A DNA stretch of 41,286 nt, taken from a virus (Duplodnaviria; Heunggongvirae; Uroviricota; Caudoviricetes). Positions 14,873-41,286 of the stretch are shown here, piece after piece (within the stretch, counting starts at the first letter, position 1; the number at the start of each line of letters is the position of its first letter). The notes under the pieces are model-generated. The model was not told the DNA's origin, made no database searches, and saw nothing but the letters and a program-made list of their open reading frames with translations. The position numbers and the translations under genes were made by a program. Where the stretch lies: the IMG/VR virus record IMGVR_UViG_2565956711_000007. One strand, 5' to 3'.

Positions 14873-15718
14873 ATGACGCTGGATGAAAAGATCTCCCAAC
14901 TGGAGAAAAAACTTGCAGAATTGAGTTCTCCGCCAATTGCTATCGAGCATACAGCTGTAGAAATTGGCACTGGCATCTGTGAAAAACACGGTGAGTTTGA
15001 GCAGCGTAACCGTTACTCGACTGGGCCAATTAAGTTTGCCTCAAGACCTAGCGAATGCCCGGAATGCATGGGAGATGAGCTTATTCGGCTACAGGCAGAG
15101 AAGATTAAAATCGACGAGGAATCACGTAAACGAAATGTCGATTTTTTGTTGAATAATCTTGATATTCCTGAACGATTCAAGGGTTGCACACTACAGAACT
15201 ACGAGCCAGTCAACGACGATGCAAAGAGAGTGCTCAGGGTGTGTCAGGCATACGCCAGCAAATGGCCTGAGAGGTTACAGAAAGGCGGTGGGCTGGTTAT
15301 GTGTGGAAAGCCTGGTACTGGAAAGAATCATCTTGCACTGGCTATCGCCCGGCACGCAATTACGGAACATCAAAGCTCAGCTATTTTCACAACGGCGCTG
15401 AAAATTGCCAGAGAATATAAATCAACATGGTCGAAAAACTCCACCCGCACAGAGGATGAAGTGATCCTACAGTTCACTAAACCTGACCTGCTAATTATCG
15501 ATGAGGTTGGTGTGCAGTTTGGAAGCGAGGCGGAAAAGATGATCATGTTCGAAATCATCAACACCCGCTACGAGCGCATGAAGCCAACAATCCTGATTAG
15601 CAACCAGAGCAAAGATGAACTGTCTGCATTCATTGGTGAGCGTGTTATTGACAGAATGAATGATGGCGGCGGATGCACCCTTGCGTTTACATGGGATAGT
15701 TACAGGAGCAGATCGTGA
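14873..15718 (+). CDS. DnaC-like helicase loader (IstB/AAA+ ATPase) replication protein
   Basis: Walker A GKPGTGKN, Walker B LLIIDEVG; N-terminal Cys cluster; ATG 14873 with AGGAG 5 nt upstream, overlapping O stop. Confidence 0.85.
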   Translation: MTLDEKISQLEKKLAELSSPPIAIEHTAVEIGTGICEKHGEFEQRNRYSTGPIKFASRPSECPECMGDELIRLQAEKIKIDEESRKRNVDFLLNNLDIPERFKGCTLQNYEPVNDDAKRVLRVCQAYASKWPERLQKGGGLVMCGKPGTGKNHLALAIARHAITEHQSSAIFTTALKIAREYKSTWSKNSTRTEDEVILQFTKPDLLIIDEVGVQFGSEAEKMIMFEIINTRYERMKPTILISNQSKDELSAFIGERVIDRMNDGGGCTLAFTWDSYRSRS

Positions 15719-37160: not shown

Positions 37161-37346
37161 ATGACCATAGAAGAACGCCTGAACAACATCGAGTTGAATC
37201 AAACCCTGCTTGACCAGCGCCTTTCAGATCTTGAGCTTAAAGATCTTGATGCGCAAATATCAGAAGCAGAAGCCAAGCTCTCCAGCTTAAACCACCGTAA
37301 GAAGCAAATCCGCAATAGAATTACTCAGGGACGCGGAAGTTGTTGA
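37161..37346 (+). CDS. Hypothetical coiled-coil protein (61 aa)
   Basis: AAGGA 6 nt upstream of ATG 37161. Confidence 0.4.
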   Translation: MTIEERLNNIELNQTLLDQRLSDLELKDLDAQISEAEAKLSSLNHRKKQIRNRITQGRGSC

Positions 37347-37355
37347 AATCATAGT

Positions 37356-37673
37356 CTATTTTTTCTCAGAGCTCATATTGTAATAGGTGGTATAAATAGA
37401 GATTGATTTCTGACATGCTTCAAGAAATTGCTGCGGAGTCATCCCAAGCCTTGCTTGCTCTGTAGTAAGGAATCTCTGTAAGAATTCATTCCCACCCGGC
37501 ATGTTTGTAGATTCTTGGAATATTGCCATTTGTTTGATTGCACCACACATACCAGCCATTTTCGAAGCTATCATGAGGCCTTGTATTTCATCAAAACTGC
37601 TATCGTCTGATTTTGTTTCTGCGTTAGCTATGCTCGAGAGACACAGGAGCAATAGGATAGCGATACGTTTCAT
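37356..37673 (-). CDS. Secreted small protein (signal peptide, two Cys), co-transcribed with mnt
   Basis: MKRIAILLLLCLSSIANA signal; ATG overlaps mnt stop (ATGA); AT-rich. Confidence 0.6.
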   Translation of the reverse strand: MKRIAILLLLCLSSIANAETKSDDSSFDEIQGLMIASKMAGMCGAIKQMAIFQESTNMPGGNEFLQRFLTTEQARLGMTPQQFLEACQKSISIYTTYYNMSSEKK

Positions 37674-37921
37674 TTTTCACCATTGCCATGCATACATTTT
37701 AACTTCTCAACATCATGCTCAAGCTCTATCAGTCGCGATGCTATAGTTGCAAGATCTAGTGCTTGAATGTGTTTGTTTTTTTCGGTCCATGCTTCAAGTG
37801 CTGCGACCATCTCAGCATTTAATGAACGAGAATTAGCCTCAGCCAGTTCAATAAGACGTTCCTTTATCTCTACAGGAAGCCTCAGATTCACTTGAGGGTT
37901 TTTGTACTTACGATCAGACAT
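37670..37921 (-). CDS. mnt: Mnt-like ribbon-helix-helix repressor
   Basis: 83 aa (same as P22 Mnt); RHH N-terminus QVNLRLPVEIKERLIELAEANSRSLNAEMVAAL. Confidence 0.75.
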   Translation of the reverse strand: MSDRKYKNPQVNLRLPVEIKERLIELAEANSRSLNAEMVAALEAWTEKNKHIQALDLATIASRLIELEHDVEKLKCMHGNGEK

Positions 37922-38026
37922 CGGCGCATCCTGAATAATTTTTTACCACAGGATATGTAGGTATCTATTGACTATCAATGCGTACCTAAATACTATGTAT
38001 GCGTACCACATACAACGGAGGATGCA
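37922..38026. promoter_or_regulatory. Divergent Pant / Pmnt promoter and operator region
   Basis: Pant -35 TTGACT (37968-37973), 17-nt spacer, -10 TACTAT (37991-37996); palindrome ATTGA-CTA-TCAAT (37967-37979); direct repeats TGCGTACC at 37979-37986 and 38000-38007. Confidence 0.6.
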
Positions 38027-38167
38027 ATGAAGGTAAAAACACTGCGTATGCCAGAGAAGCTAGAAAAAATTCTTGAAGAAAAAGCAAAGGAAGAGTGTCG
38101 CTCATTCAGCGCAGAAGTAATTAAACGGGTGCTGGACAGCCTGAGGAGAGAGGGGATAACGGTGTGA
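38027..38167 (+). CDS. arc: Arc-like ribbon-helix-helix repressor
   Basis: 46 aa [46 protein letters not shown]; GGAGG 5 nt upstream; too short for ORF track. Confidence 0.7.
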
Positions 38168-38191
38168 TTCGCTTGGATGCGGCAAAGAAAT

Positions 38192-38292
38192 CAAAACAGT
38201 GAAGCCCCAACTGCTGGAACAGTCAGGGCTTCGGTATCAACAAAACTTACGAGGTATTATTGATATGTCAAGCTTAGCAAAGTCAACTGTAA
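38192..38292 (-). ncRNA. Predicted sar-like antisense RNA covering the ant ribosome-binding site
   Basis: Minus-strand -35 TTGACG (38321-38326), 16-nt spacer, extended -10 TGcTATTAG (38299-38307); hairpin 38201-38232 then U-rich tract. Confidence 0.35.
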
Positions 38293-39155
38293 ATTGCACT
38301 AATAGCATCATCATTTCTGACGTCAAGATTCATATGGATTCAGAGGGTCGTTACTCGCTTAATGACCTTCATGTAGCATCTGGAAAGGAGGAAAAACATC
38401 AGCCAGCTTTCTTCATGCGTAGAAATGAAACTATTGAATTGATTAATGAAATTTTTAATTCTGCGGATATGCAGAATAAGAATCCCGTCCTTTCTAAGAA
38501 AGGTAGATATGGTGGAACCTACGTTTGCAAGGAGCTTGTTTACTCCTACGCCATGTGGATTAGCGCAGCCTTTGCGCTGAAGGTTATCCGTGCATATGAC
38601 GCAATGGTTACTACCACACAAGAGAGGAAGGCTATTGGCGGTAAAACTTCAGTAGCTGAACGCACACCGCTACGCGATGCAGTAAACATGCTGGTAGGAA
38701 AGAAAGGACTTCGCTATGACGATGCATACAATATGGTTCATCAGCGTTTTGGTATTGACAGCATTGATGAACTTTCAATTGAACAAATCCCGCTGGCCGT
38801 AGAGTACATCCACAGGGTAGTGCTTGAAGGCGAGTTTATCGGCAAACAAGAGAAGAAAGCAAACGAGCTTTCTGCAAAAGAAGCAAACAGCCTTGTATGG
38901 CTATGGGATTATGCTAACCGTTCACAGGCATTATTCCGCGAACTGTATCCGGCATTAAAACAAATTCAATCGAACTATTCCGGCAGATGCTACGACTACG
39001 GTCATGAATTCTCGTATGTTATCGGAATGGCGAGAGACGTTTTAATAAACCACACACGAGATGTTGATATTAATGAACCAGACGGACCAACGAATCTTTC
39101 CGCATGGATGAGACTTAAGAATAAAGAATTACCTCCTTCAGTACATAACTACTGA
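38265..39155 (+). CDS. ant: Antirepressor Ant-like protein with KilA-N-type N-terminal domain
   Basis: 296 aa from ATG 38265; follows arc as in P22 immI; N-terminal [10 protein letters not shown] motif. Confidence 0.7.
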
Positions 39156-39173
39156 CAGATAACCAACGCAACG

Positions 39174-39197
39174 ACCCAGCTTCGGCTGGGTTTTTTT
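39174..39197 (+). terminator. Rho-independent terminator after ant
   Basis: ACCCAGC TTCG GCTGGGT then TTTTTTT. Confidence 0.85.
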
Positions 39198-39333
39198 ATG
39201 CCCAAAATTCACCGTAGCTACTCAGCGGCTATGGCCTTGAGAGATAGCACTACACAAAAAGTGTAGTGCAAAAAGCAAACAAATACTCACCGTAGCCACG
39301 CTGCGGCGATTACTTGTATCTGGAGCAAATTAA

Positions 39334-41286
39334 ATGACAGACATTACAGCCAATGTTGTAGTGAGTATGCCTTCGCAACTCTTCACTATGGCACGTTCTT
39401 TTAAAGCCGTAGCCAATGGTAAAATTTATATCGGTAAAATTGACACTGACCCGGTAAATCCAGAAAACCAGATTCAGGTTTATGTGGAGAACGAAGACGG
39501 TTCTCACGTTCCTGTTTCGCAACCAATCATCATTAACGCTGCTGGTTATCCGGTATATAACGGACAGATTTCCAAATTCGTAACTGTGCAAGGCCATTCT
39601 ATGGCTGTTTATGATGCATATGGTGCTCAGCAATTCTATTTCCCTAATGTGCTGAAGTATGACCCTGATCAATTTTCTGTATGGGCAAAAAATCATTTCA
39701 GACTTAACTTCTATTTTAAGTCTGATATTAGTTTTTCATCAGGTGGACATATTGATGATGAGCGCTATGCTGTTCTTTATGATAACGATCCTGATGGAAA
39801 CATGTATTTTTATGCCAGGAAATATATAGCAGAAGGCGGTTATGATGTTGATGCTGGAAGCCATCCAGATGATAATTGGATATGCGTTGGACTACTTAAT
39901 GGCTTTAACTTAAACACCCCAGAGAACTTCGGCGCCAAACCTTATTCTGAAAGTGATTGTTTAAATGCAATTAACATGGCAATTAAAACAGGGTTTATTG
40001 AGTTAACGCCTGGTTGTACATATTTTGTTAGCGATGAAGTTGTTATCCCATCGTATTTAGTGATGGAAACAAACGGCGCAACTATTAAAGCGATGAGTGG
40101 CTATTCATGGGGTGGAAAGGCTGTAGTTCGCGCCAGCAAAAAACCAGTAGGAACATCCCCGGATCTTTCATTGCCTGAACAACAAGTTCGTGGAATTAGA
40201 CACATTGGTACATTAAATATTGATGCTAACAATGTTGCGCCTTACGGTTTTTATGGTTTTGGTGTAGTTGCAGAATCTGCCACAGACATTATATATGCTT
40301 ATAATGCCACAGAAGTTGGAATTGTACTTCTTGGGAGTTGGTATCATAAAGTAAATCAATATATGGGAATTGATTGTGCAAGAGGTGTATCTTTGGCGCA
40401 TGGTTTCTCCGGTGAAACCGGAGATGTAAACGTTAATGGTGTTGAATTTGGTGTCGTCGCCGCGTATAACACATCAAAATCTTTGTCCTATGGGTATGAT
40501 CCGTATTCATCATCTTTAACCCCACAACTCATAGGTGCCGGTGTCACCCTCGGGCAAGGATTGGCATCAAGAATAGGAACATTAATAGCTGAAACCACAG
40601 CAGGCGCTGGTTTAGCTACTGTTAACGCTGTTAGTTGGTCTGTTGGTTCTATGTACTTCGAAAAATGCAGTGAAGCGCTTGAAGATAGTGCAGAGCCTGA
40701 TATTGCGATATTATCAACTACAGGAAATGTCGAGGACCACGTATTTGACGTCGGTAATATCCATTTTGGCATAGGGACTGGTATACTGCAAAGAGCGACG
40801 GCAAGTGAGTTTCTCAACATCCAATCCATATACCGTATAGACAATAAAAAAACATGGCATAGTTCTTCAAAGGCGTCTTCAAGTTTTGTAAATTTCGTAA
40901 ACTATTACGTTCTCAACCCTTATGATTACGTTAAACCGGTTCAACTGACTAATGACGTAGGCAAGGATGTTATAAGTTCATCGGCAATGCTTAACTTTAA
41001 GGATTTTTCAAATACGCCAAATATCCCATTTTTTTATACTGGCGGTGATCTTGATATTAATATAAGCATATCAGAGGGTTCGATTATTGGGCTTGGTATT
41101 CAGGTTCAGTCTGAAGATGGAATTGAATATATAACATGCACATCATCACCGTTTTCAGCAAAGCTAACAAAAAGGAGAAATGCTTATTCTGTTTATTGGG
41201 TATCAATGGGAACTCCAGTTCAAGCAGCTACTGGCATGGGGGCGATTATAATAACAAAACAAAAAACTTCTCAATGGCTTCGTTAG
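39334..41286 (+). CDS. Tailspike protein (P22 gp9-type head-binding domain, divergent receptor-binding domain)
   Basis: 650 aa; first about 115 residues match recalled P22 tailspike N-terminus ([12 protein letters not shown]...[20 protein letters not shown]); remainder AT-rich and unrelated to what I recall of P22. Confidence 0.9.

Follow-up and report, generated by a model that had tools for sequence, protein, structure and literature searches.

An unannotated homologue of the P22 sar antisense RNA between arc and ant of a P22-like phage, with a probable promoter inside ant

The right end of the window (by which we mean the whole stretch of phage DNA analysed here, 41,286 nt long) is an immI region of the P22 type, in which mnt, the divergent promoters Pmnt and Pant, arc, ant, a terminator and the tailspike gene follow one another (Table 1). 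This region is the "ant moron" of a P22-like phage. A preliminary description, made from the letters and their open reading frames, had placed a sar-like antisense RNA in an arc/ant setting, and all the parts of that setting were found: Mnt and Arc, both matching PF03869, the overlapping Pant and Pmnt, and the ant gene itself. Pant (TTGACT-17-TACTAT, plus strand) and Pmnt (TTGATA-17-TATCCT, minus strand), which are annotated in the same arrangement in P22, are the only matches in a sigma-70 consensus scan of 37300-39400. The mnt region is 94.6% identical to that of CUS-3 (BLAST), the stretch from sar to ant shares 98-99% identity with Salmonella phage Emek and with many E. coli prophages (98% with ant of Emek over the first 436 nt of the gene), and the remaining window resembles E. 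coli lambdoid and P22-like phages. The Ant protein consists of an 11-codon leader followed by KilA-N and then by a P22_AR_C domain; the Shine-Dalgarno sequence of its gene stands 10 nt from the ATG, as in P22.

Downstream of mnt, a 105-aa open reading frame (37356-37673, minus strand) begins like a signal peptide (MKRIAILLLLCLSSIANA) and matches nothing in Pfam; its product may be a moron-type secreted or membrane protein. The spacer between arc and sar (38168-38200) is variable among phages and has only 33 nt here, readable as an open frame of 12 codons that starts with GTG (38164-38202). In Emek and E. coli QML220601, an additional open reading frame of 73 codons stands between arc and sar.

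Table 1. Features of the immI region (positions in the window)
Feature	Position	Strand	Basis
mnt, 83 aa, Arc-like repressor	37670-37921	-	Pfam PF03869, 3.1e-10
Overlapping divergent promoters Pant and Pmnt	37950-37996	both	sigma-70 consensus scan
arc, 46 aa, Arc-like repressor	38027-38167	+	Pfam PF03869, 1.2e-7; ORF list
U-rich tail ACUGUUUUGAUUUCUUU past the terminator	38184-38200	-	sequence, terminator scan
Predicted sar antisense RNA, about 72 nt	38193-38264	-	RF00262, covariance model R1, fold
3' stem-loop, predicted sar intrinsic terminator, 14 bp, 4-nt loop	38201-38232	-	terminator scan
5' stem-loop AUCAAUAA/UUGUUGAU, anti-Shine-Dalgarno CCUC in the loop	38236-38264	-	folds, family comparison
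ant Shine-Dalgarno GAGG (38251-38254) and start codon ATG (38265-38267)	38251-38267	+	sequence; putative sar target
ant, antirepressor, 296 aa	38265-39155	+	Pfam PF04383 (4.4e-19), PF10548 (3.5e-29)
Candidate Psar extended -10 TGcTAAGCT (hexamer 38276-38271, TG 38279-38278)	38271-38279	-	P22 offset, conservation
Candidate Psar -35 GTGCAA, 17-nt spacer	38294-38299	-	P22 offset, conservation
TTGACG-16-TGcTATTAG, motif of the preliminary description, probably not the sar promoter	38299-38326	-	sequence, relatives
Terminator after ant	39173-39192	+	sequence scan
Tailspike gene, P22-type N-terminus	from 39334		ORF list/sequence

The element lying between the end of arc at 38167 and the ATG of ant at 38265, and read on the opposite strand (38264-38193), is a homologue of the P22 sar antisense RNA, that is to say, an unannotated member of the known sar family. 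The Rfam family RF00262 (sar) matches 38263-38198 of the minus strand over its full model (positions 1-68 of 68) with 58.4 bits (E 1.3e-9, for a gathering score of 43), and this is the only Rfam match anywhere in the window. A covariance model of our own (R1), built from 30 family representatives, scores 80.9 bits against 38264-38197. The parallel with P22 sar proposed in the preliminary description is therefore stronger than was claimed, these two scores making it a case of homology.

The 70-nt RNA beginning at 38264 folds with -29.2 kcal/mol (z -6.3), and its minimum free energy fold consists of two hairpins, the same architecture as in the sar RNAs of P22 and Kapi1. The CCUC in the loop of the first hairpin faces the GAGG of ant (38251-38254). 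The second is the hairpin with U-rich tract that had been pointed out in the arc-ant intergenic region, and it is there as described, with 14 pairs and a 4-nt loop at 38232-38201, followed by ACUGUUUUGAUUUCUUU (in relatives of the same lineage the tail reads ACUGUUUU(U/G) or AACUUUUU). Of the six terminator-like sites found in 2.1 kb (shuffles give 1.4 +/- 1.3), this hairpin has the longest stem; with its homology match and its conservation in well over 100 loci, it is clearly beyond chance. The 5' end of the RNA would be at 38264 and its 3' end near 38193, in the U run. So delimited, the predicted sar is by construction fully complementary to the arc-ant intercistronic leader, and it overlaps the ant Shine-Dalgarno sequence and leader while ending short of the AUG, as P22 sar does. 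P22 sar has been detected in infection RNA-seq, and small-RNA-seq coverage there extends over 104 nt (AF217253 38468-38571), starting 6 nt upstream of the annotated +1, so that it covers the ant AUG, and running about 28 nt past the annotated 3' end (PMC13397905). As this coverage exceeds the annotation, the experimental boundaries of sar are looser than the annotated ones.

The hairpin is nearly palindromic and forms in a plus-strand transcript too, and some loci give weak plus-strand matches to the covariance model; it might be argued on these grounds that it works on that strand, either terminating or attenuating transcription after arc or stabilising the arc mRNA. We find this hardly credible. 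What follows the hairpin on the plus strand is GGTATCAACAAAAC, which has no T run, so that the hairpin is not an arc terminator; the terminator scan flags the minus strand only, and the G-U pairs of the minus-strand RNA become A-C mismatches on the plus strand. Moreover, ant needs read-through from Pant.

The family comparison was made on relatives of the Ant of the window, gathered from IMG/VR and GTDB genomes (the loci are labelled by L-numbers), and on 120 IMG/VR loci retrieved with the hairpin pattern itself, so that the invariance of the 3' stem seen in these 120 loci is a matter of construction. Compensatory changes in that stem are found in the diverged relatives L147, L148, L165 and L206. 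The 5' hairpin starts at the base adjoining the ant ATG in all 30 representatives, with stem sequences that differ from one to another, and five of its seven pairs have changed on both sides. In an alignment of 45 rows, fitted to the covariance model and with most 3' stems fixed by the search pattern, 90.8% of the cells are paired and 9 of the 21 pairs have changed on both sides. The covariation score of 0.233 is reached by none of 500 shuffles, which give 0.153; in a slid-partner control the score is at most 0.089, and pairing drops to about 40%. This alignment (A2) holds four opposite-strand matches to the near-palindromic hairpin (L084-, L090+, L005+ and L054+), which were left in and add noise to helix 1. 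With a plain MAFFT alignment, RNAalifold found no more than the invariant 3' hairpin, since the 5' stems of the various classes are out of register there, and the covariance-model alignment was used instead. That both stems show compensatory changes among the relatives points to selection at the level of the RNA. Within the lineage of the window (28 loci) the sar element is invariant save for two single-base variants.

Sar-like matches to the covariance model (38-46 bits, at about 133-206) are also present in Xenorhabdus (L155, L208 and L209; X. ehlersii / X. bakwenae), where another gene separates them from a KilA-N gene about 400 nt downstream. It appears that the sar family reaches into Xenorhabdus prophages.

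For the start of transcription, P22 is the natural reference. Its record annotates sar at 15021-15090 on the minus strand, the ant ATG at 15091 and Psar at 15097-15125; read from the sequence, this promoter is GTGTTA-17-TGcTATACT, lies in ant codons 3-12 and has as its +1 the base adjoining the ATG. At the identical offset from the ant ATG, the window has GTGCAA-17-TGcTAAGCT (38299-38271, minus strand), and we think that this is probably the sar promoter, with its +1 at 38264, next to the ATG. The -35 at this offset reads GTGTTA in P22, GTGAAA in Kapi1 and GTGCAA in the window, the last being invariant in the nine loci (window included) that have this ant leader.

The position of this promoter is conserved well beyond these loci. 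In 28 of the 28 genuine ant N-terminal classes found behind a sar-type hairpin, the -10 has T-12, A-11 and T-7, which on the ant strand are A, T and A at nt 7, 11 and 12 (read from T-7 to T-12), and the same 28 classes have T and G at positions 2 and 3 of the -35, or C and A at ant nt 33-34. Four spurious N-termini admitted by the loose search pattern (MDNF*, MLVSLG, MSITFA and MTPRWS) are left out of this count. Position 12 of ant is a synonymous third codon position and is nevertheless fixed, in the form of the rare codons ATA or TTA, which argues for selection on the DNA rather than on the peptide. The conservation of the sar cassette across the family ends at about the Psar -35.

The -10 hexamer of the window, TAAGCT, agrees with the consensus at only three of six positions and is the weakest of the family; it reads TAAACT in diverged relatives and TAAGAT in L144. 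A rough position weight matrix, built from consensus frequencies and able to rank several local sites though not to decide alone, gives 6.3 bits to Psar of the window against 9.8 for that of P22 and 12.2 for that of Kapi1. The consensus promoter scan reports neither this candidate nor the one of the preliminary description, and we rely on the comparative evidence instead.

Such weakness could be taken to mean that Psar has decayed, and that hairpin and leader are a relic, a recombination boundary sequence producing no functional antisense RNA, with Arc and Mnt alone in control of ant. In CUS-3 (L280, CP000711 6505-6986) the stretch from mnt to the sar hairpin is indeed annotated 'bsq2; boundary sequence', and the hairpin is where the BLAST matches of many phages begin or break off, in keeping with a mosaic recombination joint. 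We consider this reading very improbable, given that both stem-loops, the anti-Shine-Dalgarno loop, TGn, T-12, A-11 and T-7 are all intact, that 38192-38342 is essentially invariant in the 28 loci of the lineage, and that the variant of L144 strengthens the -10 at the cost of an amino-acid change. The compensatory changes in the stems also speak for selection on the RNA, and TGnTAnnnT is a workable extended -10.

The preliminary description had put the promoter elsewhere, in the "first codons of ant", and had predicted an RNA of about 100 nt across the ant start. The motifs it named are present on the minus strand (TTGACG at 38326-38321, a 16-nt spacer, TGC at 38307-38305 and TATTAG at 38304-38299); they fall in ant codons 12-21. 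Transcription from there would start at about 38292 and yield an RNA covering the ant start and codons 1-9, instead of or alongside the 72-nt form. This is not without merit: the -35 agrees with the consensus at five of six positions, the spacer is of 16 nt and TG stands at -15/-14, and on the same rough matrix, by itself not decisive, the motif obtains 8.2 bits (rank 94 of about 412,000 configurations) against 6.3 for the homologous promoter. The 103-nt stretch from its start site (-33.1 kcal/mol, z = -4.0) keeps both sar hairpins. Sites of this class (defined by a -35 of at least 5/6, a spacer of 16-18 nt, TGn and a -10 of at least 4/6) are rare, at about 4.5 per 82 kb of strand; the window has 4, against 4.5 +/- 2.2 in first-order Markov simulations, and none of these sites in the window has both A-11 and T-7. 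The chance of finding one such site in the roughly 60 nt upstream of the RNA body is about 0.003-0.07, and the motif is borderline in this respect.

The -10 of this motif, TATTAG, has G at -7, and the consensus scan, requiring A-11 as well as T-7, does not report it. A T at -7 is nearly invariant in sigma-70 promoters. Seven diverged relatives with the same leader (L143, L145, L147, L148, L149, L165 and L206) have TGTTAG or TGTTGG in place of this -10, A-11 being lost, while they keep the leader, the sar RNA and the homologous promoter (GTGCAA and TAAACT); the Xenorhabdus-type KilA-N fusions L153, L154 and L210 lack the motif altogether. It does not belong to the conserved sar cassette but to the portion of ant that is specific to KilA-N, where the sequence is set by the codons for S-D-V-K (TTGACG being the complement of the D-V-K codons), and the 5' hairpin starts at the equivalent of the P22 +1 in every family member folded. 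The lineage of the window itself cannot discriminate between the two promoters, since its 28 loci are nearly invariant (both motifs are constant except for TAAGAT in L144 and a spacer change in L016 and L142). We thus regard the start at about 38292 as unlikely. In our view, the promoter, the length of about 100 nt and the extension across the ant start were probably wrong, the homologue of P22 Psar being 28 nt closer, with its +1 at 38264.

An intermediate reading would have two nested antisense promoters, the ancestral Psar weakened to TGcTAAGCT and, 28 nt upstream, a lineage-specific TTGACG-16-TGcTATTAG giving an isoform of about 100 nt that would also sequester the ant start codon and the first nine codons, with the sar cassette as a portable regulatory module whose promoter is set in the first five codons of any antirepressor recombining behind it. 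In the lineage of the window, the homologous -10 went from TAAACT to TAAGCT while a synonymous change, AAC to AAT, created A-11 in the other motif (TGTTAG to TATTAG), which can be read as a promoter shift. We would give such an arrangement a rather small chance only.

Other promoter-like sites occur nearby. TTGACT-15-TATCAA (38286-38260) was rejected: it has a poor spacer and no T-7, L016 and L142 have a disrupted -35, and its +1 would land within the anti-Shine-Dalgarno loop. TTGACA-16-TAAGTT (38271-38244, minus strand), inside the sar gene, obtains 11.3 bits and rank 11 in the window on the rough matrix; it would start transcription at about 38237, past the 5' stem-loop, and its TTGACA arises from the lineage-specific codons ATG-TCA-A.

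Our preferred reading is that this is the sar gene of a P22-like (Lederbergvirus-type) phage of E. coli or Salmonella, whose RNA of about 72 nt, starting at 38264, masks the ant ribosome binding site. We hold this to be very probable, considering together the homology, the structure, the covariation, the conserved position of the promoter and the immI context; from these we infer the firing of Psar, the exact 5' and 3' ends and the repression of ant. In this scheme, a weak extended -10 promoter in ant codons 3-12 would start minus-strand transcription at about 38264. Termination would occur at the hairpin of 38232-38201 with its U tract, and the RNA so made, about 72 nt long, would have two stem-loops, the first of which would present the anti-Shine-Dalgarno CCUC. 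Being fully complementary to the intercistronic leader, sar would pair with ant mRNA, whether made from Pant or by read-through of the late operon, and the paired RNA would occlude the ant ribosome binding site, so that antirepressor synthesis would be shut off or limited, as P22 sar is known to do.

The make-up of the ant gene is a further comparative argument for this promoter site. KilA-N relatives without sar begin with MTNQIIISD, which suggests that the Ant of the window is an 11-codon cassette leader fused to KilA-N; it looks like a fusion in which the leader was attached to the second codon of a KilA-N protein, with the junction at about 38296-38300, immediately beyond the Psar -35. The cassette, from the terminator through the Psar -35, is common to at least 28 antirepressor N-terminal classes, and the embedded Psar would impose on whatever ant gene lies behind it the leader M-x-S-[I/L/V]-A and the rare codons ATA or TTA. 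The Xenorhabdus-type proteins L153, L154 and L210 have a different leader of the same length (MTSIAIREPHN or MTSIATNETYN), apparently from an independent fusion.

Little changes for the biology as such, sar having been a textbook antisense regulator since 1987, with an Rfam family of its own. There is, however, an annotation gap: sar is unannotated in the record of Emek, a 99%-identical relative and the closest public record, and in such E. coli prophages, and pipelines miss it. Whether the 5' end is at 38264 or at about 38292 matters for the design of probes, fusions and ant knock-outs in this phage group. Finally, a promoter kept across at least 28 antirepressor N-termini is a case of a regulatory cassette that constrains the coding sequence fused to it, and it shows where mosaic joints fall.

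Other short, structured antisense RNAs that end in a terminator and come from a constitutive weak promoter in or beside the target gene are oop of lambda and P22 and sas of P22, neither of which has any sequence relationship to the sar of the window. The oop RNA leads to RNase III cleavage of cII mRNA, and sas switches the translation starts of sieB. Both are listed in PMC13397905.

The closest comparison remains that with P22, in which the antisense role of sar is summarised in PMC2629481 (and also in PMC12111858), the original work being that of Liao et al. 1987, Wu et al. 1987 and Schaefer & McClure 1997, as cited in PMC2629481. Our statements on the P22 mechanism rest on GenBank annotation, on reviews within papers and on general knowledge. 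The two elements have in common that they are antisense to the arc-ant intercistronic region, have two stem-loops with an anti-Shine-Dalgarno sequence in the 5' loop and lie in the same immI gene order; their 3' hairpins have the same stem, with a difference confined to the 4-nt loop, and the promoters share ant codons 3-12, the TGn extended -10, a GTGxxA -35 and a +1 adjoining the ant ATG. They differ in the 5' stem (AUCAAUAA/UUGUUGAU in the window, GUUGGU/ACUGAC in P22), in the first base (A in the window, G in P22) and in the -10 (TAAGCT, the weaker, against TATACT). The U tract of the window is longer and better than that of P22, a spacer of 33 nt separates the arc stop from the terminator whereas the two abut in P22, and the N-terminal domain of Ant is KilA-N instead of P22_AR_N, with P22_AR_C in both (Pfam).

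Kapi1, PhiR12, EC.P3 and similar P22-like phages of E. coli also have sar-type elements, unannotated in their records, whose 5' stem (GUCAAUA/UGUUGAU), linker and terminator are almost those of the window (81-84% identity over 38193-38285); unlike the window, they have the family consensus TGcTATACT as their -10, and their ant N-termini are different (MKSIAKAQNDF...). In Salmonella phage epsilon34 (NC_011976), sar is a misc_RNA at 15539-15606 and Psar is 'located by similarity', both annotated by homology alone, as here; epsilon34 is of the P22 type throughout, whereas in the window the 5' half of sar and the ant gene belong to another class.
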